From assembly GCF_044647545.1 (NCBI RefSeq), contig NZ_CP172818.1: a DNA stretch of 64,000 bases, one strand, 5' to 3'. The position numbers and the translations under genes are program-made. Position 1 is the first letter of the stretch. Each line of letters begins with the position of its first letter. The notes beneath the pieces are model-generated. The model made no database searches and was not told where the DNA came from. It saw only the letters and a list, made by a program, of their open reading frames with translations. Source of the DNA: Escherichia coli. Lineage in GTDB: Bacteria; Pseudomonadota; Gammaproteobacteria; Enterobacterales; Enterobacteriaceae. Shown here one piece after another: positions 2,025 through 38,849 of the stretch.

Positions 2025-3344
2025 TTAACTGCCCCAACGACTTTGCAGATAGCTGACCGCTTGTTGAGTCTGTGGCTTATTCAGATAGTCCTCACGGAAC
2101 AAGATTGTGCCGCTAATTTCTGGCACGGCATCGTTAAGATCGAGCTGCTTTTTCAGTTCCGGTACGCCGCCGTTAATCATCCAGTCTGGCTCTATCTTTG
2201 AAGGTTCACCCACTTTATAGAAGGCGATACCGATATACAGGCGGGTCCTGGTCGGTTTAACGACATCCGCCCACCATTTTGCCAACACGTCATAACGTGC
2301 GGCACTCCGTGAGAACGGCCAGTAAATTTGGGGAGCAATGTAATCCAGCAACCCTTGTTCCACCCATCGACGGGTATCAGCGTAGGATTCGTCATAGGCT
2401 GCCGCGCCTCGGGTATCGGAACCGAGCGGATCGTGTGATCGGTTACGCCACACGCCTGCCGGGCTAACGCCAAATTCGACTTCCGGCTTAATGCTTTTAA
2501 TGGTGTGCGATACCTTCGCAATTAACTGCTGAGTATTGTTGCGCCGCCAGTCTGCTTTTGACGCAAATGCGCCGCCGTATTTGCGGTACGTTTCGTTATC
2601 ATTTAGCCGTGAAGCTGGTGACTCAGTATAGAAATAGTCGTCAAACTGCACGCCATCTACCGGATAGCGGGAAACCACTTCTGCGACTATTGATGTGATC
2701 CAGTCCTGAACCTCAGGGATGCCCGGGTCGAGGACAAAGCGATCGCCGGACGTTCTGATCCAGTCGCGGTGTTGCACATAGACGCTGGCCGGTTGTTGAG
2801 ACAGGGTGCTATTCAGTTCCCTGATAGTACCGGGCTTCGTATTAACCGATACGCGATAGGGGTTAAACCATGCGTGTACTTTCATCCCACGCTTGTGGGC
2901 TTCGTCGAGCATGAATTGCAGCGGATCGTAACCCGGATTTTCACCAATCTTACCGGTCATAAGATCGGACCACGGCAAAATTTTCGATGGCCACAGGGCG
3001 GTACCATCCGGCTTGACCTGAAAAAAGACCGTGTTTATGCCGAGACGTTGCAGATGATCCAGTTTGTCGATCATCGCCTGTTGTTGTACACGGGCCCGGC
3101 TGGTGGGGTTACTAATGTTAACCGAGGAAAGCGGTGGCCAGTCGAGGCGAGACACCGTGGCCAGCCAGATGCCACGCATCGGTTGTGACGATTGTTGCGT
3201 CGTGGCTGGTGGCTTTGAACCCGCTGGTGGTGTCACCATGGACTCTGGAGGCGTGCTTTTACAACTACACAGTAAAAGTGCCAGTGCAACCAGTATCGCT
3301 GGTCTTCTAATCGCTAATTTCTCGTTTCGGGAGCAGATATCCAT
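2025..3344 (-). CDS. yddW: lipoprotein YddW, glycoside-hydrolase-like family, 439 aa
   Basis: 439-aa ORF with signal peptide and lipobox-like LLLCSC near N-terminus; position between dosC and gadC matches K-12. Confidence 0.8.
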   Translation of the reverse strand: MDICSRNEKLAIRRPAILVALALLLCSCKSTPPESMVTPPAGSKPPATTQQSSQPMRGIWLATVSRLDWPPLSSVNISNPTSRARVQQQAMIDKLDHLQRLGINTVFFQVKPDGTALWPSKILPWSDLMTGKIGENPGYDPLQFMLDEAHKRGMKVHAWFNPYRVSVNTKPGTIRELNSTLSQQPASVYVQHRDWIRTSGDRFVLDPGIPEVQDWITSIVAEVVSRYPVDGVQFDDYFYTESPASRLNDNETYRKYGGAFASKADWRRNNTQQLIAKVSHTIKSIKPEVEFGVSPAGVWRNRSHDPLGSDTRGAAAYDESYADTRRWVEQGLLDYIAPQIYWPFSRSAARYDVLAKWWADVVKPTRTRLYIGIAFYKVGEPSKIEPDWMINGGVPELKKQLDLNDAVPEISGTILFREDYLNKPQTQQAVSYLQSRWGS

Positions 3345-3474: not shown

Positions 3475-5010
3475 TTAGTGTTTCTTGTCATTCATCACAA
3501 TATAGTGTGGTGAACGTGCACGCGGGTGCAGGAAGAAGTGACCTTTTGGTGCGTTCTGACTGTTGATTGGCTCCAGAGTAACGCCGGTATTCCCTTTGCC
3601 TTTACGATCATGAACAGCATAGAGAATAAAGGGCAGGGCAAGTACCACCAGGAAACTCACGACCAGTAATTCAACATACATATCAGTAGAGTCACCCTGG
3701 ATGTTATCCGGCGGCAGGAAGGAAACAATAAACGCCATAATTGAAGTCAGCAGACCGACAATAGCCACGACCAGTTTCACCCCTTTACCACCAGGGATAT
3801 TAAATGTGCGTTTTAAGTCAGGATGTTTAAGAACCAACACAATGTAGCCAATAAACAGCATGAAATAAGCACACAGATAAATCACCACCGTCAGCGCCAG
3901 TGCGATCAGGAAGGACATGTTGTTACCGCCACCGGTATTGGTGAGGATGATCAACGCGATAGAAGTAATCACCAACTGCGAAATGACCAGCGTTACCGGT
4001 ACGCCATTTTTGTTCATTTTAGCGAATGCCGCTGGCAGCAGGTTTTTCTGCGCTGTGACATACATCCCGCGAGAAGGACCAACAATCCAGGAAGCGATTT
4101 CCGCCAGAACACCCAGCAACAGCAGTGCGGAGATCACGCGAACCGTCCACTCAATTTCCGGTGCCACATGTGACATCAGAACGGTAAAGGTTTGCATTAC
4201 CCCTGCGGAGAGGTTGATTTCATTACCCGGAATGACCATCGCAATAGACAAACCGCCAACAGAGCTTAAGCAGATTGCCGCCACCATCAGCAGTAACATA
4301 GCCAGTGGATAGTCGCGCCCGGGGTTGCTCATTTCATTGACGTGGGTTGCGGAAGCTTCAACGCCCATATAACTCAAAATGAAGGCAACAAATACAACCA
4401 GAGTGCCCACTTTAGAGAAGTCAGGGAAGAAGGTCTTCGCATCCATTTCGATAGCAACGGGGGCACCGGAGTGCAGATAAATAGCCGCTAATGCGATCAA
4501 AATAAATGCAGGTAACAGGATACCGGCGAAGAAGCCAACTTTAGCAATTCGCGCCGTGTATTTCGTGCCACCAAACTGCGTTAATGCCAGCGCCCAAAGA
4601 ATGATGAGTGCTGCAATAGTTTTGGTAATGGGGTCTTCATTCAGCGCTGGCCATTTCAGGATGTAGGAGAGTGCCCCTAACACGAAATAGAGCATCGGAA
4701 TAAAACCAATGGCGATTTGCAGATAGCCAAATGAGATCGCTGCAAATCCCCATCTCGGCCCCAGAGTATTTGATACCCAGGCGAAGACGCCACCTTCTTC
4801 CCAGCCGTCGACGGTAGCCATTTCCGCAGCACAAAGTCCCACGGGAATAAACCATAAAATCCCGCCTAATAGCAGGAAGAAGACTAATGAAAAGCCCGAT
4901 GTTGCGAAGGTAGGGTATTCATAAACAGCCATTACCATCGATGCCGTTATGGCAAAGAATCCGAGTAATGTGAGCTGCTTAGCTTTACCTGTCTGTACTG
5001 ATGTAGCCAT
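3475..5010 (-). CDS. gadC: glutamate:GABA antiporter GadC, 511 aa
   Basis: 511-aa highly hydrophobic multi-pass ORF (APC-family-like) immediately downstream of gadB. Confidence 0.9.
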
Positions 5011-5165
5011 ATTATCCCCCTAAAACGGTATTCCTGTCGGAACCGCACCTGTTTTGTTCTGAAGCGTATTCAGAACAATATTTTCCGTTGCTAATGCCAG
5101 TGAACAGACTTTGGAAATTGTCCCGAAACGGGTGTGTTTCGGGACACCGTTACCGTTAAACGTTA

Positions 5166-6566
5166 TCAGGTATGTTTAAAGCTGTTCTGCTGGGCAATAC
5201 CCTGCAGTTTCGGGTGATCGCTGAGATATTTCAGGGAGGCTTTGTAGTCTTCCAGCAACAGTTCAGCAAAGTCCATTTCGAAGCCGCGACGACACATAAT
5301 GCGCATCACCACGATGTCAGTGGCTTCACCGCCGAGAGTGAAGGCCGGAACCTGCCAGCCGCGCAGACGCAGACGTTCAGAGAGGTCGTAGAGGGTGTAT
5401 CCCGGATCTTCACCATCTTTCAGTTTGAAGCAAACCGCTGGGATGCCTTCGTCCGGGCGACCGGTACAGATGAACTCATACGGCCCCAGTTTGGCGATTT
5501 CATCCGCCAGATAGGCAGCAACCTGGTAGGAAGCGTTCTGTACTTTGGTATAGCCTTCACGACCGAGGCGCAGGAATTCATAGTACTGTGCAATCACCTG
5601 ACCCGCCGGGCGGGAGAAGTTGATGGCGAAAGTCCCAATCTGACCACCGAGATAGTCAACGTTGAACACCAGTTCCTGCGGCAGCGCTTCTTCATCACGC
5701 CAGATAACCCAGCCGCAGCCTAGCGGAGCCAGACCGAATTTATGGCCTGAAGCACTGATCGATTTCACACGCGGCAGGCGGAAGTCCCAGACGATATCCG
5801 GGGCGACGAACGGTGCCAGGAAGCCACCGCTGGCGGCGTCGATGTGCATGTCGATGTCGATACCGGTGTCGGCCTGGAATTTATCCAGCGCATCGTGCAG
5901 CGGCTGCGGGAACTCATAGTTACCGGTATAGGTCACGCCGAAAGTCGGCACCACGCCGATGGTATTTTCGTCGCAGGCTTCAATCATGCGTTTCGGGTCC
6001 ATAAACAACTGACCGGGGCGCATAGGGATCTCACGCAACTCCACATCCCAGTAGCGGGCGAATTTATGCCAGCAGATTTGTACCGGACCGCACACCAGGT
6101 TTGGTTTATCCGTTGGCTTACCTGCAGCTTCCATACGCTTGCGCCAACGCCATTTCATCGCCATCCCGCCAAGCATACAGGCCTCGGAAGAACCAATGGT
6201 GTTGGTGCCAACGGCCTGACCATTTTTCGGTGCAGGCGCATGCCACAGATCGGCAACCATGTTTACGCAACGCAGGTCGATGGCTGCAGATTGCGGATAT
6301 TCTTCTTTGTCGATCCAGTTTTTGTTAATGGATAAATCCATCAACTTGTGGACATTTTCGTCGTCCCAGGTCTGGCAGAAAGTGGCCAGGTTCTGACGAG
6401 CGTTGCCATCAAGATATAATTCGTCATTGATAATCTGAAATGCGACATCGTCGCGCATTTCGTGCAGCGGAAAACGTTTTGATTCTGCGATAGTGGAAAT
6501 AGACTTTGCACCAAAACGTGAATCGAGTAGTTCCGACCTTAAATCCGTTACTTGCTTCTTATCCAT
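5166..6566 (-). CDS. gadB: glutamate decarboxylase GadB, 466 aa
   Basis: ORF track gives 489 aa; trimmed to internal start [21 protein letters not shown] (466 aa) which matches the recalled GadB N-terminus; PLP-dependent decarboxylase motif [10 protein letters not shown] present. Confidence 0.9.
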
Positions 6567-6645
6567 TTTAAACTCCTTAAAATGATTGGATCGCATTAAA
6601 AAAGTAGGATTTATCGATAAAGTAAGCAAGTGCAAAGGACTCGTG

Positions 6646-6665
6646 TTTAAATAACAAAATCCTAA
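6646..6665 (-). promoter_or_regulatory. GAD box (GadE/GadX-GadW binding element) in gadB promoter
   Basis: Reverse complement of 6646-6665 is TTAGGATTTTGTTATTTAAA, the 20-bp GAD box consensus, about 80 nt upstream of the gadB start codon. Confidence 0.75.
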
Positions 6666-7173
6666 TGTTATTTATCGTGAGATATTGCGTGAATAATATT
6701 TTTTCATTGAAAAACAATATAGTAGGGAGCTATTGGGTGGTGGCAAGGTGTTTTATGCTGTTATTTTTATGTGCATTCTGTGCCTCCTGAATTATCACGT
6801 AAAAATCAGACCTTAAAATATCATTATTAGTACGCGGTTATTTACTTTGAACGCATTTATAAAATTATTACATAAAAATAGCGAATATTGCTAAAATCCC
6901 CGCCAACGATGTGTTGACGGGGCTGTGATTATTTTGGCAATAATACCCCGGCATAAGTATTTACCGGATGAGAAAGATATTGTTTAACGCGTTAAGGGGG
7001 GGGGGAGTGAATGTCATTCTCGAGCTCTTTATTCGCTGCCGCTCCGCAAACAGTAACCTTCCACCTTCTCCCATCCACCACCGGCCCCTCGCCTCGTAGC
7101 CGGCCGGCGAGCCCCGGCAGCCAGCATGGTCTCTGCCGGGGTACGGGTGTGGTCAGGCCCCTACTGCCCTCTG

Positions 7174-7364
<191 letters not shown>

Positions 7365-7439
7365 TCAGGCAGGGGGGGGAAACCGAGTAATAATGGGATA
7401 TAAGGTAATGGTGAAAAAAGGATAAACGAAAAATAAGAA

Positions 7440-9150
7440 AGTCTATGTATGAATACGCGCTGGAACCCATGCGGTGGCCTGCCTGCAATTTGCTAAATGT
7501 TGGCTTCAGTTAACTTTATCGTTGAGTAGATAATGTAATTGTCTTGGATAGAAAAATGTGATGTAAATGTCTATATTAAAAAGATTTTAGGATGAAAATA
7601 AACTTGATGATTAAAAAAGGCTAAAAGTAAACTAGAATGAAAATTACCAATGTAACATATAAAAATGGTGAATAAACTGATAAGGTGGGAGGAAGAAAAA
7701 TAATGATAGGAATGTGCTATTCATAAATAATATCGGGTCGGTGAGAATTGATAAATTATATGTATCCGATAGATAAAAAATGATAAACTAAGAGGGTAAT
7801 GGAATTAGTATAATGAGGTAAGTAAAATAATTGATATGATCAGAGTGATGGCTGCTATCATGAAAAGTAGTTACTGAATTATGGTCTGTAAGGTATGTAG
7901 CTCTGGGGGCATAAATTAAATAAAAGAAACTATGTTCTGAGAAAAGAAATTATTATTAATAAAATGCATTGTGTAATGATAAAAATAGTTTTTGGCCTGC
8001 ATAGCGTTGTTGATAGTGAATAATTTAGGAAAAAATAGGCCAGCAGAGTGGGTTCCCTGGTCGCGCTGTCTTTGTTTGATGAACTCTTTCAGAGTGCTGT
8101 CATCATCATTTTTCATGAGTAAACTGCGACTCTTTTCAAGGTAAAAACAGTAATCAATTTGAGATTAATTGAAAACTGGAGGGCTGGCTCCTGCATTCTG
8201 CTCCTGCCGGGCTTTTTGATTTGTTAATTTTGATTTATTGTAGGGTGGCTGGCTGCTGTGATAAACTCTTTAAGCTTGCATCTTTTAACGACCTGCGGAT
8301 TGGGGGGCAAGGTTATTTTTGCTTAGATCGTGTTGTAGATAACTGATGTTTTCTACTGTATAGAAAGGAATAATCGTTTTACGTATAGAATTGGCTTAAG
8401 TCTGTGTTGGGGTTATGCGGGTAATTTGACTGATGGGAAAAATTTGGGTAATTTCAGAATGGAATATTTCTGTAAACAGTGAGAATAAGAGGTTATCAGG
8501 TAGATTTTTATGTGGCTGCTTTTTTATCTGCAACAGGGCAGCAAGGAAACGCCATCAGCTTAAGGTCTTTGGAATGCTGATATGGCTGATAAGAGCTGTA
8601 GGTAAAATCATTGGGAAATAGCTGTATAATTACGGGTGAAGTCACAATAAAATTGGGGTGTGAGTGCGGATAGGTCTGACTTTAAGCCTGCCGAGCGGCA
8701 AGGACATCGATAACGCACATTATGGAGGTAAAGAGAATAATTGTATGATACTGTCCGTCAGTTGTCGAGAATGCGTAACCTGATAAGAATAGGAAGCGTA
8801 GTAGTTACTTACTCAGATAATGCTTTGATTGATCAGGTGAGGATTATTTGGCAGGTCGGAGCTTTAAGCAGGTAGCTTGGCTGGTGTGTGGCGATAGTGT
8901 TGGTGTGCGTGGGGTTGAAGTTGGGTGCCTTGGGGTGTGTTGGTGGGGGTGTCTTGGAAGTAAGAGAGAAAAAGTGGGTGAGTGAAGTAGTAAAAGAGAA
9001 GAGAAGAAGGGAAAAAGTAAAGGTTAAGTAATTGAAAAAATGAATAAAATGAGAAAATGGAATTGAGATAAAATAATATGAAAGGTTATGAAATGATAAA
9101 TATGTGATGAATGTATTATTTATTAATAAATATATCGCCTAAAAACAACG
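7440..9150. other. cytosine-depleted, AT-rich low-complexity non-coding block
   Basis: Plus strand is almost entirely G/A/T, with G/T-rich and G/A-rich stretches; no credible ORF, RBS or RNA gene; occupies the position of pqqL-yddB-yddA-ydeM-ydeN in K-12. Confidence 0.8.
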
Positions 9151-17159: not shown

Positions 17160-18482
17160 TTACTTAATACCGTATTCTCGGCTTAACCGGTCGTGCAACC
17201 TCAACACATTGGTTTCAACTGCCGTCACCACGTTCTCCGGAAAATCTGTCGGTAATGAAGTCTTCACGTTATCCAGTGCTGCTGGAATCATTCTGGCAAA
17301 GTCACTCAGGATTTCATGCATCTGCACTTCCGGGAATCTCAGCACCTTTGCTGTCGCCAAAAAATGTCGCGGATAAATTTTATCGATTGCCGTTTTTTTG
17401 CCTTTGGATGCGTTAAGCCCCATTGCCAGTTTGAGATCGCTGATGTGTATTCCCGTACCGCCAAGGACCGGAAATGCTGAAATGATGTCGTAAAATGGCG
17501 TGAGTCGATAACTGCCGCCAGCCTGAATAAATACGGAGAAGTTTTTTGCATGACCGTCCGTTGCGCCAATCAACCACTGGAAGACCTGGAATTTCATAAA
17601 ATCATAGCGATCTTTCAGCGCCTCGCTGGACCCCATCAAAAAAGCCATGATCCGCGCGATGCCTGGGCCTCCATCTGATTCATATTTCACCGATGAAGGT
17701 AAACCGAATGTCTGACACATATCCTCCTGTGGCAAGCGAAGTAAAACCGTTCGCTCAGCATTCCAACGCCTGTCAAAACGTTCGACCGCTAACGCGCGCA
17801 CATTTCCCGCTTTAATGATTTCTGCGTCCGGAACATTCAACCCAAGTTCTTTCGCCAGCAGCAGACAGTAATACTCATTATCAACGCTTTGGCTGAGATC
17901 GAGCGTCGCATTGGGCTGCCTGATTTCGCCAATCGGTAATTTAATGATGTGCGTCGTCGGCGTTATTCCTTTCGGAATGCACCAGTCATTGCCTATTCTG
18001 AGCAGTGCTGTCTTCTCCTGTGCGCCAGCAACCGAGATGCGAAAGTCATTTTCTTCTCTAATCATGCCTAGCGGGATATCTGCTTTATAAGCCGTTAATA
18101 CTTCTTCAAGTCTGGCTTCAGTAAGCTTTTCCCATGCCATTATCGGATGCGTTACGGTTTCGTCTTCGGGTATTAACGTCACGGCACCAACGCTGTCTCG
18201 CCCTATTTCTGACAATAAATCAAACGGTTGTCTGGATTTGGCATGATAACGTTTAACGATCCGGTCACGTACAATCGGGCTATCGGGTAACAGGTTATCG
18301 AAGAAGTTAAATACGGCATCAGAGGTGATATTCCCCCTCTGCAATGGCAGCGAAAGTGACAACGGTCTGGCATAACGGCTTGCTAACCACTCCGGTGCAT
18401 ACTTAAAGGTGTGCGCGCCGTTGGCTAACTTCGTTAACTCGCCTACCCGCTGGTTGTTCATCCAAGTGACAAGTTTAGGCAT
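17160..18482 (-). CDS. hipA: HipA serine/threonine kinase toxin, 440 aa
   Basis: ORF track 459 aa; trimmed to MPKLVTWMNNQRVGELT start (440 aa) whose ATG overlaps the hipB stop by 1 nt. Confidence 0.9.
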   Translation of the reverse strand: MPKLVTWMNNQRVGELTKLANGAHTFKYAPEWLASRYARPLSLSLPLQRGNITSDAVFNFFDNLLPDSPIVRDRIVKRYHAKSRQPFDLLSEIGRDSVGAVTLIPEDETVTHPIMAWEKLTEARLEEVLTAYKADIPLGMIREENDFRISVAGAQEKTALLRIGNDWCIPKGITPTTHIIKLPIGEIRQPNATLDLSQSVDNEYYCLLLAKELGLNVPDAEIIKAGNVRALAVERFDRRWNAERTVLLRLPQEDMCQTFGLPSSVKYESDGGPGIARIMAFLMGSSEALKDRYDFMKFQVFQWLIGATDGHAKNFSVFIQAGGSYRLTPFYDIISAFPVLGGTGIHISDLKLAMGLNASKGKKTAIDKIYPRHFLATAKVLRFPEVQMHEILSDFARMIPAALDNVKTSLPTDFPENVVTAVETNVLRLHDRLSREYGIK

Positions 18483-18748
18483 TACCACTCCAGATTTTGC
18501 TGTTCTGTTGATTCTGGCGAGGCATTTTTCGCGTCGCATAGCGTCATTGAGAGTTCAAGCGACTGTAAAATCTTAAAAAATGTCGTGAGCGTGGTATTGT
18601 CAGGGTTGTTTTCGAAATTGGAAATCGTCGCCTGCTTAATACCAATTTTTTTCGCCAGCTCGCTCTGCGTCCAGCCATTTTGCTGGCGAACCAGTTTCAT
18701 TGCATTCGCCAATTGCGTTGGGCTATAGATCTTCTGAAAGCTCATCAT
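18482..18748 (-). CDS. hipB: HipB antitoxin, HTH-XRE DNA-binding protein, 88 aa
   Basis: Trimmed to MMSFQKIYSPTQLANAMKLVRQQNGWTQSELAKKIGIKQATISNFENN... (88 aa); helix-turn-helix motif; immediately upstream of hipA. Confidence 0.9.
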   Translation of the reverse strand: MMSFQKIYSPTQLANAMKLVRQQNGWTQSELAKKIGIKQATISNFENNPDNTTLTTFFKILQSLELSMTLCDAKNASPESTEQQNLEW

Positions 18749-18959
18749 GTCATACGTCCACAGCAAGTTTATCCGCTTAAGGGGATATTATAAGTTTTAT
18801 CCTTTAGTGAGGATAAGTCAATCTGGAAACACATCTTATCCGCTCTACGGGATAAACGCTGCGATATCCGCGATCGCGGATAAAAAGGAGGATTTAAAAG
18901 TCGTTTGAAGTCGGCAATATTAAGCCGCATGCATCTTCGACATGCGGCTTATACGGTTT

Positions 18960-21900
18960 ACCAGCTATATTTCACACCCAGCATGCCCTGAGTATCGCTA
19001 TAGCCTTTATCACCTAGTTGCACACCGACATTCCCCCACAGGCTAAGGTTGTTATTTACTTTCGCCTCAACCCCGGTACGTACTTCACCGAGATTACGCG
19101 CACCATCACGGCTTACGGTTTGACCATTCATCTTCACGGCGTAGACTTTGCTGTTGTTGATCCAGTTCGCTTCAATGTAAGGCTGGAACTCACGCTGTTT
19201 ACCATTGTCACGCTGGTGTAGTCGTCAGCAGAACGGTTATCGGAACTGACGCTGTTATCAAACCAGTTATACAGCGCCCAGCTGTCAACATAAGCGCCGG
19301 TCTTATTCGCATCGTTCTGATACCAGGTCGCGTACAGTCCTGCGCTGTAACCGCTGATGCGCCCATCCGATTTATAACCCACATGATTACTCTGAGTATT
19401 ACTGTGCTGATTGGCATAGCCTGCCATGACGCCGAGATGCCAGCGATCCTGCGCGTTGCTACTCCACTGCGCCAAATCGCCGCCCTTGCCATATTAATGG
19501 CAGAGTCGGAACCGAAAGCAATTTCCCCCCCACGATATCCGTCGTACCCTGATACGCCGCGGAATCGTTGTTAAGAGTCAGGATCCCGGTACCCAGTTTT
19601 GTCACATCACCGCTACCGCTGATACTGTGCGTCATCGCCCAGCTACGCTCAGTGGAGATGGTGAGCAGGCCATTATTGATAACGGAAGCATCACCCAGGT
19701 TTTTCTGCTCGTTGACGCTGAGCGCGCTGCCTGTATCAATGTTGAATTGCCCCACAAAGCGGCTATTATCGCCATCCAGCTCTACATCTGTCCTGGCGGT
19801 TGCGCTCACGATACCCTTCCCGCTTATGCCATTGCGCAGTTCGCCAGTCACGTTTTTTAGCGTTAACAGACCGTTATTGGCAATATTTCCGCTGCCTAAC
19901 CCCTGCGTATTATCGAGGCTGACTTCCGCATTTGGGCTAATGCTGGTTAACGCATTGTAGCGTGCATTAAGCCCCTCGATAGCCAGCGTTCCCCCTGTAA
20001 CATTCAGGTTTCCGCCACCTGTCAGTTCACCCTGACTGATCCCACCTTTATTTACCGTCAGCGCCCCCTCTTTGAACAAAACAGTCGAACCCATCTGCCC
20101 GGTGAATGTCTCTACCGTCTGCGTCGATCCATTAAGATCGACGATGGCCGCGTTGCTGATGTTCAGTTCCCGGGTGTTGCCAAGTGCACCATCCGCATCG
20201 GTACGTAATGTCCCCATCTGAACGTAGGTTGCCCCCTGATAGTCGTTCTGAGCGTTGGAAAGCGAAACCTGTCGCACCGTATTGATTGCCAGATCCCCTT
20301 CACCACCGATTTTTGCCGACATATCGGCCGTTGCGCCATAGGCTCCGCCATGTTCGGCTAACGTCAGCTTTTGCCCTCCATGGATGTTCAGCGCTTTCAG
20401 CCCATAGTTAACGTACAAACCATCACCTGGTGCGGTCGTGAGGCGGAATCCATAATCACCCTCGGCGACCACCGTTCCGTTTTGCGCAATGTGTAACGTT
20501 TTGTCCGCTTCCACCTCGTCGCCCTGTAAATCACGTAACGTTAATGAGCCACCCGACCCAATAACCGTTTGCGCCTTCACCAGTTGAACGCCGACATGGC
20601 TATCATCGTGTTCCAGCAAATTGAGCGTCGTCAGAGGGTTATTCGCCATGGGATCATTCCACGGTTTAGGCACGTCGATAAGCACGTCGCCCGTCCCGTT
20701 TACCTTATAGTTACGGCCTTTCCAGGTGTAGTCACTCGCGCCGACAACCAGCGTATCGACGCTGATATATCCCTCTGCAAGCGTCGCAGCAGGAATATCC
20801 GTATCGAAAATGAGCGTACCGCCATTCATGGCCAGTCCACCAATGGATTGCTCTCCCACGTTTACCGATGTGGTATTTTCAATGTCAGACTGCAACATCG
20901 CGTGAGTAAGCGCAGCGGTGTTGTCGCGTTCCAGAGTGAAGGTACTGTCTTTCAGTTGGGCAACACCGGCGAATTCAGTCCCTGTTGCATGGGTAAAGCC
21001 AAACATCTTGTCGGAGGATGACAGCTGCACTCGCATCAAGCCATCGCCTTTGAGCGCATTGGTCAGCGTGTAATCTCCTGCGCTGTTCGTTGATGCGAGA
21101 ATGTCGAGCGTACCGGGGCTTGCAATGGTGACTTCACTCGAACCCATGCCTGTTACCCCATCTGCCGTATGTGACGCAATAGTCAGGAGGCCGTCATTGA
21201 CCAGCGTTTTACCGCTATAAGTATTCCCTGCATTGAACACCGTATGGCCTGCATCATGCATCACTTTTCCGTCTTTATCGTCACCCGTAATCAGCATATC
21301 GACCTGGTAGCCGGCATCACTGTTATTGGTATGATTAAAGACAAAAACGCCTTCGCCAAGACCAAACTCCACTTTCGTCGCATTGGTAATAAACCCGGCA
21401 TCTGCCGCTACCTCACCGTGAGCAGCACCAATGTTTAGCGTTCCTACAGCAGGCTCAAAAACACCTAAGTAAACTTCTCCACCTTCGACATTCAGCGTGC
21501 CGTTATTCGTCAGGGTTAACGTACCTGTGCCAGTCGTCCCTACGTTCATATTGAATGTTTCAAGAAGAGAGTTCTGCCCATCCACCCGCACGTCGCCCTT
21601 ACTTTTGTCATTCAGAGCTATCTGTGTATCACGCGCTTTAACTATACCTCCGGTGGTAATATTCAGTTCACCCGTGCCTAATACACCGACCTGTAGCAAT
21701 TGGGCGTTAGTAGATGACGTTTTTAAATTCCAGAGACTATGCGTTGAAATATTAACTATCCCCTTACCGGAGGCATTTCCTCCGATAAATCCATAGCCCG
21801 TTGAATTAAGGGTGGCACCATTACTGACATTTACGATGCCGCTACCAAAATTACCGACATTGATACCTACAGTATCGAACGATGATGTCGCATCCATCAG

Positions 21901-23361
21901 GTTCAGTGTGCCGATACCGCTTGCTTTATCGCCCAAAAAAGTAATATTTTGCGATACGAACTTACCGCCATCGCTGATATTGAGGTTTCCGACGCCCGCA
22001 ACACCAATAGTGGTATAGACATTCTTATTGACCTCCCACATCCCCCCCGTGGTGATGCTAACCTTCCCGACGCCGGTTTCTCCATAACCGAGTGAGCTTC
22101 CTCCGTTGCTGACAACAAGCCCCTCATTACTGATATTCATTTCGCCGTGGCCGTCATAACCAAGATTAGTTCCGAGATTAGTGATAACGGAGTTCTTATC
22201 CTTAACAGTAATGTTGCCTGTGCCTGTTTCTTTCATCCCCGCAGTGATAATTCCCGAATCGACTTTGCCTTCACTAGAGACATTAAGTTCACCGTCGCCA
22301 GCATCACCGATATAGATATAGCGGAAAGCTTCGCCCGTTCCGAGGAAATTCCAATGCCCTTTATCGGTCACGTTGACGACACCGTGGGAACCGTCCTGAA
22401 CGCCCACCAATGAATATTCTTTGTTATTAATCAGTCCATTATTGGAAATATTGACTTTGCCATTACCGAAATATCCATTATAGAGTCTGCGTACCGTAAT
22501 GACAGAGTCTTGATCCTGCACATTCAGGGTTCCGATACCGGTGGCATTGCCACCGATAATCGTATTTTCAGCCGTAATTAGCCCACCCTCGCGAATAGTC
22601 GCTTCCCCAGTTCCTTGATTACCAATTTGAAATTCAATTGAGGAATCGTTATTTTTCATTAGCCACTCACCGCCCTTTTCAACGACAACCTGGCCATTAC
22701 TGCCCGCCTGATAGCCTAAAATGGCGACGATTGAACTCGTGACGTAACCCTTATCCGTAATATTTAATGAGCCCGTACCGTAACTCCCTATTTCGAATAA
22801 TTCGGTCGTCAAAACCGAGTCCTCTTCCTCAACATTAACCGTCCCGACGCCTGCAGCTTGAGTACCTAATCTTAAATAGCCTCCATCGACGTGACCCTTC
22901 TGTTTAATATTCAGCGTCCCCGTTCCGGATTGACCCACATTTAAAGGCCTTGCATTATTTCCGCTATCATACAATCGCCAGGTGCCACCCAAAACATTAA
23001 CGGTGCCCTCTGAGTCCTCATTAGCGCCAATGACGCTGGTAGTAATAGTGGTTAAGGAGGCATTACCGCCAGCCAAAATATTAAGCACTCCAGTGCCATA
23101 CCAGCCAACCAGGTAGGCATCATAAGCAACATTAGTATCAATATTGGTAATCTGATCATTATCAACTTCCAGACTTGCACCAGACGCTGAACCGCTTAGT
23201 GCCAGCAAAACACCCAGCGTCAATCTACTGAGTTTCGTTGTCAGTCCAGAGGATTTACGCAAATTAACCGTCGATGTTTTACCTACCCTGCGAGTTAATT
23301 CCGAGCAGACCTGAAATGCCTGTAGGGTGCAATTCCATATCACGCGATAGATTCTATTCAT
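18960..23361 (-). pseudogene. yneO: AIDA-I-like autotransporter adhesin, frameshifted (yneO/ydeK)
   Basis: 1300-aa passenger ORF with repetitive G/N/T-rich beta-helix repeats, plus two further ORF fragments (19134-19475, 19208-19492) carrying beta-barrel motifs; C-terminus ends ...VKYSW at 18960; at least two frame changes between 19134 and 19500. Confidence 0.8.
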
Positions 23362-23890
23362 ATAAACGCTCCATATACAAACAATACAGCCACGAAAGAG
23401 ATGAGTCGTCAGACATTAAAAATGAAACTTATTAAATTGTCAGAGGTCTGTATTGAGTGTTGGTTGGAGGTGGGAAGGTGTCAATTTGGCTAATTTGCTA
23501 ATACTTTCGAATTGATAGATTAAAAATTGCATAGTTCTTATTTTATTTAAAAATGAACCATGAGTTATTGTTGCTTAATAAGAAAAATATTTCTTTCAAT
23601 AAGAAAATTACCATCATCATATTTAACAAAGAATAGCACTAATTGCTAAAAAAGAACTCTATTAAAACTCTTTTTCATTCATTTATGCCTTTAGGAATAT
23701 TCGCTATAAAATAAGGGTTATGCTTAATGTTTTAAGAAAAATAGCAATTTTCCCTTGAATATAGTACTGGCGATGGAACGATGAATCTGCAAGCTGGCAT
23801 TTAACAAGCCAGTTCTAAAAGAAGGGAAATAAGAATAACTATACTCAAAAACTAACAGCCACGGTCATCATGATGTGGCTGTCAATGAAA

Positions 23891-25483
23891 CTATAACCCA
23901 GGCGCTTTCCATAACGACGTCGTCAGTCCATGATCAACCAGCCCCAGCTGATCCTGATAAACTGCCTGCCACTTATCGCGTGAATCCTGATAAAGTTCAT
24001 GCTTTTCTGGGTCTGGTGTGTGCGTCCGTTCCCAGCGAACCAGGCGTTCTCCGGTTTCTGCCATTGATGAAAAAATTCCGGCACCGACGCCAGCTGCAAT
24101 GGCACATCCTAATGCAGTGGCTTCTTTGACCACCGGAATATTGACGGGTAATCCCGAGACATCAGCGAGAATTTGACTCCATAATTTCCCTTTTGAACCT
24201 CCGCCTGCAAAGACTAGAGATGTGGGATGAATATTCGAAAAATCAGCAATTTGCTGCAAGTTACACGCTGATACAATCGCCGCATTTTCTTCCAGCGCAC
24301 GGAACAATGTCGCTTTGTTACATTTATCCGGGTCAATGGACAAGTTAATAAAGGAAGGCGCAGCGTGATACCAGGTTTTAAAGCGCATTCTGTCGGAGAA
24401 TATCGGCATTACGCCCCACGACCCAGGCGGCACACGACTTGCCATCTCTTCAAGCAGCGTATAGGTGTCGATGCCTAAACGTTCGGCAATCAGTTTTTCT
24501 TCGGCACAGAAAGCATCGCGGAACCAGCGCATGGTGAGTCCGGTAAAAAAGCTTATAGATTCAGCTTGTACCATGCCAGGAATAACATGGGGATTAACGC
24601 GCACGTTCATTTCTGGGTCTGTCACCGGCGCGGCTAAGTTTACAACTTGCTGCCAGAATGTACCGCCAAGAACCGCGGTTTGTGCCGGACGGACAACGCC
24701 TAACCCCAGGCAACCAAGCTGCACGTCACCTCCTCCAACGACCACCGGAGTGCCCGCCTTCAGACCGCAGAGTTCCGCCGCTTGTGAACTTACCACGCCC
24801 AGCAATGTGCCGGTTTCTTTGACAGGAGAAAGAATATCGGCCCGCAGTCCGGCCATATCCAGCAATGCAGGTTTCCAGTCACGGGTGGTTAGATCAAGAA
24901 GTCCCGTGGTGCCAGCGTTAGAGGGATCCACCGCCAGTTCGCCGCTGAGCATATAGGCCAGCCAGTCGCTGATCATGGTGATGGTCGACGCCTGTCGGTA
25001 GATATCGGAACGATGGTGCGCCAGCCAAAGTAATCTGGGGATGGCGCTTAAAGCCAGCGTTTGCCCGGTCGCTCGATAAACTTTGTTTTCAAAGGTATTG
25101 TTGTGCAGTTCTTTAAGTTCGCTAACTTCGCGCGCCGCTCTGGCATCCACATTGGCGCAGGCCCAGATCGGTGTTCCATCATTGTTATATAAAACAATGC
25201 CTTCACGCATCGAACATGCCGAAACGGCAGCGATATACTCCGGGGCTATGCCGGCGTTGTGCAGCGCCTGGCGCATACACTCACACGCCAGTTGCCAGTT
25301 TTTGTTGAGATCAAATTCCATAGAACCAGGAACGTCCGGTACTGCCAGGTGCCGCCACTCCGCCTGTCTCACGGCTATTTGATTGCCTTCCAGGTCGAAT
25401 ATCACAGCCCGAATACTTCCGGTACCTGCATCCAGCGCCATCAGGTAATACTTTGATTCTGAAGGGGTAAAGAGTCGAGCCAT
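23891..25483 (-). CDS. lsrK: autoinducer-2 kinase LsrK, 530 aa
   Basis: FGGY-family carbohydrate kinase-like 530-aa ORF adjacent to and co-oriented with lsrR, divergent from lsrACDBFG. Confidence 0.9.
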
Positions 25484-36171: not shown

Positions 36172-37119
36172 TCAGACAACTTCCTCACCGTAACGCATAG
36201 TGCTGGTACGGTTGCGCCCATCTTTCTTCGAGCGATACAGACATGTATCGGCTTCGACCATCAATTTATTAAAGTCATCGGTCAGCGTTCGGTACGATGC
36301 GCAACCACTACCGACGCCAATACTTACCGTGAGATAAAGCGTTTTTTGTTGCCAGGTGAACGGTTGCAGTTCAACGCCTTTACGGATTTTTTCCGCCATT
36401 AGCAGACCATCGACAGGATTCACCGATGGCACTGCAACAGCAAATTCCTCGCCGCCCATTCGCGCCACCAGCCCCTTATCACCGACAATCTTCTGAATAT
36501 GCTGGGCAAACACGCTTAACACTTTATCGCCACATTCATGTCCATAGTTATCGTTAATGCTTTTGAAATAGTCGATATCAAGCAGCATGACAGTCAGATG
36601 TTGTGTCTGTTTCAGCGATGGACTTTTCAGCGCCTCATAAAGACCGGACCGTGAGTAAACCTGAGTCAGAAAATCAAAGTCGGCTCGCAGCGCAACTTGC
36701 TTCATTAGCGAATTGATCGCTGCCACGCTAAAAGAAACCATAATTGGGCATATCGCCATCGTGGCAATACCGAGACGTGCGGAGAACATTTCTGGAATGG
36801 AGAATGGCGAACCGACCGAGATATCAATCACCGAATTTGCCACCAGTACGATTTCCACCGCACCGGTGACAAAGGTCAACAGACATGTTACCTGCGGCGT
36901 ATAGCGCACTGCACACCAGATTAATGCAGGCAGCGGGAACGCCAGACTCCCCGCTCCGCCAATGACTACCGAGGCAATAACCGACACAATAAGCGCGATG
37001 GCGGGCATCATCTGTTCTGCTTTAAAGCGCGGCAGCACTCCCGGAATAGCCAACGTCAGCATACAAGGCACGATCAACACGCCCGTTGAGAATTGCTCAC
37101 TGAACCAGTCCGCAAGCAA
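36172..37119 (-). CDS. dgcF: membrane-anchored diguanylate cyclase DgcF (YneF), 315 aa
   Basis: N-terminal TM segments plus GGDEF-type domain with degenerate-looking motif RMGGEEF. Confidence 0.85.
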   Translation of the reverse strand: MLADWFSEQFSTGVLIVPCMLTLAIPGVLPRFKAEQMMPAIALIVSVIASVVIGGAGSLAFPLPALIWCAVRYTPQVTCLLTFVTGAVEIVLVANSVIDISVGSPFSIPEMFSARLGIATMAICPIMVSFSVAAINSLMKQVALRADFDFLTQVYSRSGLYEALKSPSLKQTQHLTVMLLDIDYFKSINDNYGHECGDKVLSVFAQHIQKIVGDKGLVARMGGEEFAVAVPSVNPVDGLLMAEKIRKGVELQPFTWQQKTLYLTVSIGVGSGCASYRTLTDDFNKLMVEADTCLYRSKKDGRNRTSTMRYGEEVV

Positions 37120-37199
37120 AGGCCAGAAATCCAGACTATCAATACTGACCGAACCAATCCCCCAAATACCATAATAATCGGCAATCAGACAGTAATTAA

Positions 37200-37500
37200 A
37201 TACCTAACACTTACTCTCATACTTATTTTTCCCCAAACCTTATCCCCACGACCAAACGACAAAAATAAACATCATATAGAAATTGATACCAGAAACCCCC
37301 CCATCTTTACACATAAACCACACCCACAAACGACGCAAGAAGACGATAAACCAAAAAAGAAAACCCCCCAAACGAAAAAAAAAAAAAGGAAAACCAAAAA
37401 AAAAAAAAAAAAAAAAAAAAAAAGAAAAAAAAAAGAAAAAAAAAAAAAAAAGAAAGGGAAAAAAATAAAAAAGAAAAAAAAAAAAAAAAAGATAGCATGT
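37200..37500. repeat. A/C-rich low-complexity block with long poly-A runs
   Basis: Plus strand nearly devoid of G/T from about 37200, then A-runs up to about 27 nt punctuated by single G (37376-37490); yields Lys-rich/Phe-rich spurious ORFs. Confidence 0.9.
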
Positions 37501-37563
37501 TCGCTGACAGCGGCGGCAAATAAAGATACCTAATGAATGCCATTTTATCGATTTCCGTAATTA

Positions 37564-37923
37564 TCATGGCTGATTCATCTGTATAACCAGCCAGTGATAG
37601 ATTACCGTCACAATATAACGTTGTTGCTCCTCACTTAACGCTTCCCCTTGAGGAATGTTATGCCACTTAGCCAGACAACCGCGACAACAGGTCGCGGTGG
37701 CGTGTTGAGCGATAAAAACCGGATGCCCGCGCATGGGGGTTTGCTTACCGTCGTTAGCCGGTAATGCCGGAGCAAGACGTTTAGCGACAAAATCCGCCGC
37801 ATGTTGTTCGATGACTGGCGCACCTTTCTCCAGACAATACTGACGCTCTTTCATGCCCAAACGAAAGCGAGAGCGAAATTTTGAACGGGATAAACGCGCG
37901 AAGAGTGGATCGAGAGACTGCAT
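37564..37923 (-). CDS. yneG: uncharacterised protein YneG (DUF4186), 119 aa
   Basis: 119-aa ORF whose start codon overlaps glsB stop by 1 nt; synteny. Confidence 0.8.
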   Translation of the reverse strand: MQSLDPLFARLSRSKFRSRFRLGMKERQYCLEKGAPVIEQHAADFVAKRLAPALPANDGKQTPMRGHPVFIAQHATATCCRGCLAKWHNIPQGEALSEEQQRYIVTVIYHWLVIQMNQP

Positions 37924-38849
37924 TAATAAACTGAACGCCCTAATTGTTTCGTCAATTGTTCAAGGACAGCAATGCCCGCAAGCGAGTTACCGGCATCATC
38001 CAGTTCCGGGCTCCAGACTGCGATGGCCATTTCATGCGGAACAATCGCCACAATACCGCCACCAACGCCAGATTTTGCCGGTAGTCCCACCCGCCAGGCA
38101 AACTCCCCCGCGTTCTGGTACATACCACTGGTCGCCATCAGCGCGTTAATTTGCCGCGCCTGCATTGGCGTCACCACAGGTTCATCAATATGAATAGCTT
38201 TACCCTGATTAGCCAGAAAGACAAACGTCCGGGCCAGCTCTACACAGCTCATTTTCAGAGCGCAGTAATGAAAGTAGTTTTGCAGAACGGTTGTCACATC
38301 ATGATGGAAATTGCCAAACGACTTCATCAGCCAGGCGATAGCCGCATTTCGCGCGGAGTGTTCAAATTCGGAACGCGCTACCACCGTATCGTAGGAAATA
38401 TCAGACACACCGCTTAAGCCGCGCACGACTTCCAGCATACGTTGCCGAGGAGCGCTTAATCGCCCTTGCAACATATCGCAGACCACCAGCGCACCGGCAT
38501 TAATAAACGGATTACGCGGAATACCCTGCTCCATTTCCAGTTGCACTAAAGAATTGAACGGTGATCCAGACGGATCTTTGCCGACGCGTTGCCAGATTTC
38601 CTCTTCGGAGTAATGACGCATGGCGACAACGAGACTCAGCACTTTGGAAATAGACTGAATGGAAAAACGTTCTTGCGCGTCTCCGGCCTGAAAAAGCTGT
38701 CCGTCAACGGTACAGATAGCAATCCCCAATCGGGAACCGTCTACCGTAGCCAGCGCCGGAATATAATCCGCGACTTTACCCTGACCAATGAGCGGCCGCA
38801 CTTGCCGCAAGATGTTTTCTAAAATTGCATTATCCATGGCGACTGCCAC
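37923..38849 (-). CDS. glsB: glutaminase 2 GlsB (YneH), 308 aa
   Basis: 308-aa serine-dependent glutaminase-family ORF; synteny. Confidence 0.85.

Follow-up and report, generated by a model that had tools for sequence, protein, structure and literature searches.

The 64,000-nucleotide stretch of Escherichia coli DNA analysed here (contig NZ_CP172818.1; hereafter the window) carries a broken autotransporter adhesin gene between lsrK and hipB, which raises the question of what the gene was, what has been lost from it and whether its inactivation is reversible or shared with the corresponding pseudogene of K-12. On the strength of sequence comparisons, the dead gene at 18958-23361 on the minus strand is judged, with a probability of roughly 93%, to be an irreversibly inactivated allele of the ECSE_1600/YneO-family AIDA-I-type (type Va) autotransporter adhesin.

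Family, locus and intact form of the gene

The remnant and the longest open reading frame (ORF) within it are as follows.

18958..23361, minus strand: whole ECSE_1600/YneO-family remnant, 4404 nt as compared with 5421 nt in the intact gene
19459..23361, minus strand: 1300-aa ORF; aa 1-1276 are authentic and are followed by out-of-frame codons; stop codon at 19459-19461

A repeat-rich passenger ORF of 1300 aa had been reported in a preliminary description made from the sequence alone, and its presence is confirmed. The ORF scores 2845 bits (positions 1-1281 of 1806) against the NCBIfam model NF011422, 'ECSE_1600 family autotransporter', which exceeds the curated cutoff of 2335 bits and places it in the family; an intact allele scores 4182 bits over positions 1-1806. 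An N-terminal Sec signal is present as an ESPR signal peptide (PF13018, E=3e-15, residues 1-48) and is followed by a passenger with eight T5SS/PEP-CTERM-associated repeats, the authentic part (aa 1-1276) being 97.7% identical to the intact protein. At the nucleotide level, three blocks of the remnant align with the intact allele L002:1841-7261 at ~98% identity. It is flanked by lsrK (23891-25483) and hipB (18482-18766), and the order lsrK - gene - hipB is that of other E. coli, which puts the remnant at the lsrK/hipBA chromosomal position. Thus, the earlier assignment of an AIDA-like adhesin pseudogene to the yneO/ydeK locus is upheld.

The intact protein of 1806 aa consists of the ESPR signal peptide, a repeat-built beta-helical passenger, an autochaperone, a linker helix and a C-terminal beta-barrel, with the domains AC_1 at aa 1332-1438, Pertactin at aa 1335-1452 and Autotransporter barrel at aa 1525-1784. 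Its C-terminus aligns end to end with the AIDA-I beta-domain structure 4MEE (E=1.9e-70), and the segments deleted in the window could therefore be placed on the linker helix and the barrel strands. AIDA-I of diarrhoeagenic E. coli thus shares the architecture and a clearly homologous translocator, but its passenger belongs to another repeat family and the YneO-family passenger is 500 aa longer. AIDA-I proper was considered and rejected as an identity for the gene, as the intact allele reaches only 338 bits against the NF033176 (NCBIfam) cutoff of 1200.

The closest described counterpart is ECSE_1600 of E. coli SE11 (1806 aa): gene and locus are the same, and aa 1-1276 of the window copy are ~98% identical to intact alleles. 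The SE11 gene is intact (PMC2608844), whereas the window copy is frameshifted and lacks 339 codons.

Three lesions and the coding remnants between them

A base-by-base alignment with the intact JML285 allele was used to place the lesions, as the preliminary description had recommended for pinpointing the indels. Three were found, and are listed below in the direction of translation with the fragments that they separate.

22042..22048, minus strand: second poly-G tract, codon 438; G7, the wild-type length, with no lesion here; mutated in other strains
19525..19531, minus strand: lesion 1, poly-G tract at codon 1277; G7 (C7 on the plus strand) as against G8 in intact alleles; -1 frameshift
19485..19524, minus strand: last authentic passenger codons, aa 1279-1291, EIAFGSDSAINMA, now in frame 2 (by translation)
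19484..19485, minus strand: lesion 2, a 784-bp deletion (junction); nt 3879-4662 of the intact CDS lost, aa 1293-1554
19219..19484, minus strand: retained barrel fragment, intact aa 1555-1642, in frame 1; PF03797 positions 37-132
19218..19219, minus strand: lesion 3, a 232-bp deletion (junction); nt 4929-5160 of the intact CDS lost, aa 1643-1720
18958..19218, minus strand: terminal barrel fragment, intact aa 1721-1806 and the stop codon, in frame 0 again; ends KYSW

In the direction of translation, the slip at codon 1277 is the first break in the reading frame, and the frame-shifted tail that it gives to the 1300-aa ORF reads KLLSVPTLPLIWQGRRFGAVE up to the stop codon. The autochaperone domain (AC_1/pertactin) is lost through the 784-bp deletion, together with the linker helix and the first strands of the barrel, while the 232-bp deletion removes central barrel strands. 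Each lesion changes the frame by -1, so that the path runs 0, 2, 1, 0, as verified by translation; since 1017 nt (339 codons) are lost in total, the tail is returned to frame 0. The two blunt deletions account for 1016 of the 1017 missing bases. A search for microhomology or direct repeats at both deletion junctions found none, and the gene holds no meaningful DNA repeats.

Decay by frameshifts, with at least two frame changes near the passenger/barrel junction, had been proposed earlier. The G8 to G7 slip agrees with this proposal, which nevertheless understated the damage, as there are three frame changes, two of them are large deletions, and the junction region itself is absent. Barrel fragments are likewise present as described, although the frames given for them were not correct; they lie in frame 1 (19219-19484) and in frame 0 (18961-19218). 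The former is seen as an ORF at 19134-19475 matching PF03797 positions 37-132 of 255 (E=7e-13) and the latter as an ORF at 18958-19137 matching positions 223-254. The KYSW terminus noted at 18960 is indeed there, with the stop codon at 18958-18960; the C-terminal aromatic outer-membrane-protein signature (...GVKYSW) therefore persists, but on a fragment unjoined to the 1300-aa ORF. A third-frame ORF of 94 aa (19208-19492) has no family match, and just its first three codons are authentic and passenger-derived. Thus, no single frame joins the passenger to a complete beta-barrel: the passenger ORF ends at 19459, the barrel survives only as the two PF03797 segments, and both AC_1 and the segment aligned to the 4MEE linker fall inside the 784-bp deletion. 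With 339 codons of the export apparatus deleted, the adhesin would not be exportable as encoded, as had been predicted.

An Rfam scan of 18400-24000 (E<=1) returned no RNA family. A promoter and terminator scan gave sites not above those of shuffled sequence, and none upstream of the ATG; it has no bearing on expression.

The G8 tract at codon 1277 contracted to G7, presumably by slipped-strand mispairing, and the blunt 784-bp and 232-bp deletions took away the autochaperone and linker helix together with the first and several of the central strands of the barrel. The translatable remainder would be a signal peptide and passenger of 1300 aa without a translocator, which, if expressed, would probably enter the periplasm and be degraded there, leaving no surface adhesin.

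Relation to K-12 yneO and to the ST648 group

The K-12 gene yneO, formerly ydeK/ydeU (b1509/b1510; synonyms from PMC10782963), is named 'AIDA-I family autotransporter YneO'; searches of the literature for yneO and ydeK turned up incidental mentions only. The K-12 gene occupies the orthologous position between lsrK and hipB, is likewise annotated as frameshifted and is likewise broken by a poly-G slip, so that a single ancestral inactivation shared with the window, as implied by the earlier statement that the remnant matches the K-12 yneO/ydeK state, might be considered. The alleles themselves make this vanishingly improbable. The K-12 derivative XL1-Blue carries a full-length gene of 5422 nt whose sole lesion is one additional G (G7 to G8) at codon 1319, a site that lies within the 784 bp absent from the window. 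Conversely, the K-12 tract at codon 1277 has the wild-type length G8, whereas that of the window is G7, and K-12 has neither deletion. The window therefore does not show the K-12 state, and the two inactivations, as read from their lesions, are independent.

The lesions of the window recur elsewhere. Of 5426 complete E. coli genomes, 84, making up the ST648 group, gave a single collinear match across both deletion junctions, and every relative having any one of the three lesions has all three together. No mismatch separates strain ST648 from the window over 6.8 kb; the two share the G7 tract and both deletions, but the codon 438 tract of strain ST648 is G11 as against G7 in the window. The ST648-group allele (for example NZ_CP008697.1, RefSeq pseudogene FH07_RS12180) has the same G7 tract and two deletions but retains four more bases (GCTA) at junction 1, which makes its first deletion 780 bp long, and the ST648-group genomes lack the hipBA present in the window. 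The absence of GCTA at junction 1 is the only window-unique feature among the lesions: the exact window sequence across this junction is found in no complete E. coli genome, the best match (99.2% identity) differing by the four extra bases. When the 1300-aa product was looked up by exact identity, no record was found. Independent draft assemblies, also without hipBA, do contain the recorded 1290-aa product that the ST648-type allele encodes.

Assembly junk occurs elsewhere in the window, as runs G114 (at 7249) and G48 and poly-A stretches at 37375-37490, where real sequence has been replaced. Because of it, the missing GCTA could be an assembly error and not a mutation. Extended to all three lesions, the same argument would make the isolate's gene truly intact and its lesions errors of sequencing or assembly; such gross artefacts, the homopolymer context of one lesion and the four-base difference at junction 1, which no other genome shows, speak in its favour. 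It is, however, very improbable, as 84 independent complete genomes share the G7 tract and the two large deletions, with flanks showing no mismatches to the window, and the ST648-type allele is found in separate draft assemblies as well. Moreover, homopolymer errors are unable to take out 1016 bp at two clean junctions, and homopolymer correction cannot restore a single ORF across a loss of ~1 kb. Since they recur in these genomes, the lesions are inherited and not read errors.

An inherited ORF of this length with an intact signal peptide might be imagined to remain useful, the truncated passenger borrowing a barrel in trans or serving in the periplasm, and the dN/dS values are compatible with this idea, being only slightly higher for pairs with the window (0.16-0.24) than between intact alleles (0.11-0.19). 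Intact copies of the gene are under purifying selection. Passengers of type Va autotransporters are, however, covalently tied to their own barrel, and here the autochaperone is missing too; in addition, the relative CLSC36 has lost the 5' half of the gene and strain ST648 is frameshifted again at codon 438. This further decay argues that no selection keeps the ORF, and the low dN/dS is attributed to the recency of the inactivation. A residual function is thus extremely improbable, and the dead allele remains the preferred reading.

Poly-G tracts and recurrent loss across E. coli

Oshima 2008 (PMC2608844) lists SE11 and HS as having an intact ECSE_1600 and MG1655, E24377A and O157 Sakai as having a truncated one, while B2 strains lack the gene. 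About half of E. coli genomes have the gene intact; among the loci sampled here, 11 of the 14 full-length ones are intact. At least six distinct lesion sets occur among the 19 loci examined, four of them being slips in poly-G tracts. As judged from these lesion sets, the adhesin gene is broken repeatedly and independently in E. coli lineages, mostly at poly-G tracts, and the decay of the ECSE_1600/YneO-type gene is of an ordinary and already documented kind. The poly-G tracts of the intact gene fall in Gly-Gly codons.

The recurrence at these tracts raises the possibility that the adhesin is phase-variable (a contingency gene) and that the window shows it in an OFF state, from which a change in a poly-G tract could switch it back ON. 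Three runs of seven or more G occur in the intact gene, as compared with 0.55 expected from synonymous shuffles (P=0.015), a modest enrichment. The tracts lie within the ORF, and their lengths differ between strains and set the frame, as is characteristic of contingency loci: at codon 1277, intact alleles and K-12 have G8, the ST648 group has G7 and strain BE311 has G9; at codon 1319, both G7 and G8 occur; and at codon 438, the tract is G7, G8 (strain E09) or G11 (strain ST648). In several intact alleles, however, substitutions interrupt the tracts (codon 1277 is reduced to G3 in four loci and codon 1319 to G6 in many), which argues that the tracts are not conserved by selection. For the window, restoration of G8 would be useless because the autochaperone and much of the barrel are deleted, and a reversible OFF state is accordingly highly unlikely in this allele. 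For the gene across E. coli, a broader version is less remote but still improbable, namely that ECSE_1600/YneO may be a low-rate phase-variable gene that several G7-G8 tracts flip OFF and, in principle, back ON, with K-12, BE311, E09 and the ST648 group as OFF variants and deletions subsequently fixing a prolonged OFF state. If true, this would be an unusual instance of contingency switching driven by homopolymers in a core adhesin of E. coli.

For the allele in the window, irreversible inactivation remains the favoured interpretation, and the result amounts to a correction at the level of annotation: the lesion is independent of that of K-12, far more destructive, and typical of one E. coli lineage. 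The ST648 group can be marked as a lineage by this lesion set, and the gene could serve studies of the pruning of the adhesin repertoire in E. coli.

Open reading frames and family of the remnant

The minus-strand remnant at 18958-23361 and its neighbours comprise the following.

23891-25483, lsrK, upstream of the remnant
19459-23361, minus strand, 1300-aa ORF (ORF listing)
19208-19492, minus strand, 94-aa ORF (family scan)
19134-19475, minus strand, 113-aa ORF, PF03797 positions 37-132 of 255
18958-19137, minus strand, 59-aa ORF with KYSW C-terminus, PF03797 positions 223-254 of 255
18482-18766, hipB, downstream of the remnant
17160-18539, hipA, downstream of the remnant

In family scans, the 1300-aa ORF was found to carry an ESPR extended signal peptide (PF13018, E=3e-15) and eight T5SS/PEP-CTERM-associated repeats, and to match NF011422, "ECSE_1600 family autotransporter", at 2845 bits over model positions 1-1281 of 1806 (NCBIfam cutoff 2335 bits), the autotransporter family thus being correctly named in the preliminary description. 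The long ORF, the barrel pieces (PF03797 is the 255-position autotransporter barrel model) and the KYSW end reported there were also recovered by the ORF listing and family scans, with the correction that the 94-aa ORF, counted as a barrel fragment, matched no family in the scan and has only its first three codons (M-A-S/R) in common with the real protein.

Between lsrK and the start codon of the autotransporter lie 530 bp of very AT-rich intergenic DNA (23362-23890; GC content 0.31-0.33 against ~0.5 in the flanks), in which a consensus scan found no sigma-70-like site. A perfect 8-bp inverted repeat, GCCGCATG...CATGCGGC (18925-18950, minus strand), lies directly 3' of the TAA of the gene and may be its terminator or a REP-like hairpin; it differs from other alleles by small indels, and a 13-bp indel is polymorphic close by at about 18900. 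Rfam and promoter/terminator scans gave no sign of another hidden function in the remnant region.

Lesions relative to the intact gene

A megablast search of window 18700-23700 against 5426 complete E. coli genomes located the locus in most of them, with a matching span of ~6.02-6.03 kb vs 5.0 kb in the window. Strain JML285 has the gene as an unbroken CDS of 5421 nt encoding 1806 aa (WP_097301655.1), on which codons and CDS positions are numbered here; its domains are as follows.

aa 1-47, ESPR signal peptide
aa 1253-1281, PATR
aa 1332-1438, Autochaperone AC_1
aa 1335-1452, Pertactin
aa 1525-1784, Autotransporter barrel

The last 328 residues of the intact protein align end to end with the AIDA-I beta-domain (PDB 4MEE, E=1.9e-70), but identity with AIDA-I itself was ruled out by a score of 338 bits against the AIDA-I model cutoff of 1200. 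Base-by-base comparison of the window with the JML285 allele revealed three lesions within the gene.

19525-19531, minus strand, G8 tract at codon 1277 (GTG GGG GGG GAA), now G7
19484/19485 (junction 1), 784 bp missing, intact CDS nt 3879-4662, aa 1293-1554
19218/19219 (junction 2), 232 bp missing, intact CDS nt 4929-5160, aa 1643-1720

Decay by frameshifts, as previously described, is therefore an incorrect account of the damage, which consists of a G8 to G7 slip and two large deletions. Each of the three causes a -1 frameshift, with a total loss of 1 + 784 + 232 = 1017 nt or 339 codons, and translation traces the authentic sequence along the following path.

23361-19534, frame 0, intact aa 1-1276
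19525-19485, frame 2, EIAFGSDSAINMA, intact aa 1279-1291
19484-19219, frame 1, intact aa 1555-1642
19218-18961, frame 0, intact aa 1721-1806

Past the G7 tract, the encoded ORF continues for 23 junk codons in frame 0 and stops at 19459. By the 4MEE alignment, the 784-bp deletion takes out the autochaperone, the linker-helix-aligned segment (YRPEAGSYISNIAAANSLF) and the first barrel strands, and the 232-bp deletion a central block of barrel strands, leaving about 175 of roughly 280 barrel residues in two pieces. The sole translatable product is a signal peptide and passenger without autochaperone, linker or barrel, and the loss of function proposed earlier is upheld. To cross the outer membrane, a type Va passenger depends on a barrel covalently joined to it and on its autochaperone; since both are lacking, any product made from the remnant would be retained in the periplasm and degraded. 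The G tract probably contracted by slipped-strand mispairing, and the two blunt deletions may have arisen by illegitimate recombination; neither junction showed microhomology, and a repeat search found no meaningful DNA repeats within the gene.

Inheritance of the lesions

A 481-nt query across the G tract and both junctions matched 84 of the 5426 complete genomes (the ST648 group) in one collinear stretch. Strain ST648, one of the 84, aligns with the window over 6.8 kb with no mismatches and three indels: a G11 tract at codon 438 (G7 in the window), four additional bases, GCTA, at junction 1, making the deletion there 780 bp, and one base close to the alignment end. A second relative, CLSC36, has the G7 tract and both junctions in common with the window, and the ST648-type 1290-aa product has been recorded from separate draft assemblies; an exact look-up did not return the 1300-aa product of the window. 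The G7 tract and the two large deletions are hence inherited features of a lineage, all relatives carrying all three lesions.

Only the missing GCTA at junction 1 is unique to the window. The ST648 form is the older state, because re-insertion of exactly the original bases is implausible, and the window form reflects a subsequent loss of 4 bp or an assembly error, the latter deserving some weight because of blatant junk elsewhere in the window. Between ydeM/pqqL-like and gadB-like sequence, 6996-7380 is G-rich with homopolymers G10, G48, G114 and G8; the region spans ~1.76 kb vs about 2.5 kb in other E. coli genomes, no genome covered at least 80% of window 6300-8100, and a sequencing or assembly artefact seems to have replaced real sequence here. 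The yneG/glsB - diguanylate cyclase region contains what is probably a further patch of low quality or artefact, a degenerate A-rich stretch at 37240-37490 (runs A13, A28, A10, A16, A17); ST648-group genomes match only 89% of window 36600-38200 at 97.9% identity, vs 100% around the autotransporter.

The window retains an apparently intact hipBA toxin-antitoxin pair, whereas ST648 and CLSC36, otherwise identical, have cleanly lost the exact 1.6-kb segment 17221-18827, which holds hipB and the greater part of hipA. This makes the window a sister of the ST648 group and not a member. Among other sampled strains, hipA has an internal stop in 504239 and is truncated in E09 and O157:H7 RV06. In CLSC36 (NZ_CP041300.1, 2713-6647), a further deletion has eliminated lsrR, lsrK and 1 kb from the 5' end of the gene, so that a truncated lsrA is now fused to mid-remnant sequence, and an additional internal 642-bp deletion removes CDS 2664-3305, showing that decay of the locus went on after inactivation.

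State of the gene across E. coli

When the megablast ranking was sampled at even steps (forty rows), the locus was full-length in 25, partly deleted in 7 and represented by hipB alone in 8. As 11 of the 14 full-length loci inspected are annotated intact, the gene is intact in roughly half of E. coli genomes. Damaged copies carry the following lesions.

K-12 (XL1-Blue), G7 to G8, codon 1319
BE311, G8 to G9, codon 1277
E09, G7 to G8, codon 438
O157:H7 RV06, 8-bp duplication, codon 1328
CM2, 480-bp deletion within the barrel
ST648 group, same lesion set as the window

In this set, the first hit is most often a poly-G slip. Three G runs of at least 7 occur in the intact gene, a modest enrichment (0.55 expected from synonymous-codon shuffles, P=0.015), and the tracts are interrupted by substitutions in several intact alleles.

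The K-12 gene is listed under the name "AIDA-I family autotransporter YneO", with synonyms ydeK and ydeU (PMC10782963). A match to the K-12 pseudogene state had been suggested and was not borne out. The 5422-nt gene of the K-12 derivative XL1-Blue, annotated as frameshifted, differs in length from the intact allele solely by the extra G at codon 1319, a site within the 784-bp deletion of the window; its codon-1277 tract is wild-type G8 and both large deletions are absent. Although the locus is the same, the two pseudogenes are of independent origin.

In Oshima et al. 2008 (PMC2608844), ECSE_1600 (1806 aa) is given as an intact gene in SE11 and HS and as a truncated one in MG1655, E24377A and O157 Sakai, and B2 strains lack it; the pattern of intact, damaged and absent copies is already in the literature, and the remnant is an ordinary, already documented pseudogene. 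Over codons 1-1276, dN/dS is 0.11-0.19 among intact alleles, which shows purifying selection on the gene where it is whole, and the values of 0.16-0.24 for pairs including the window fit a recent loss of constraint.
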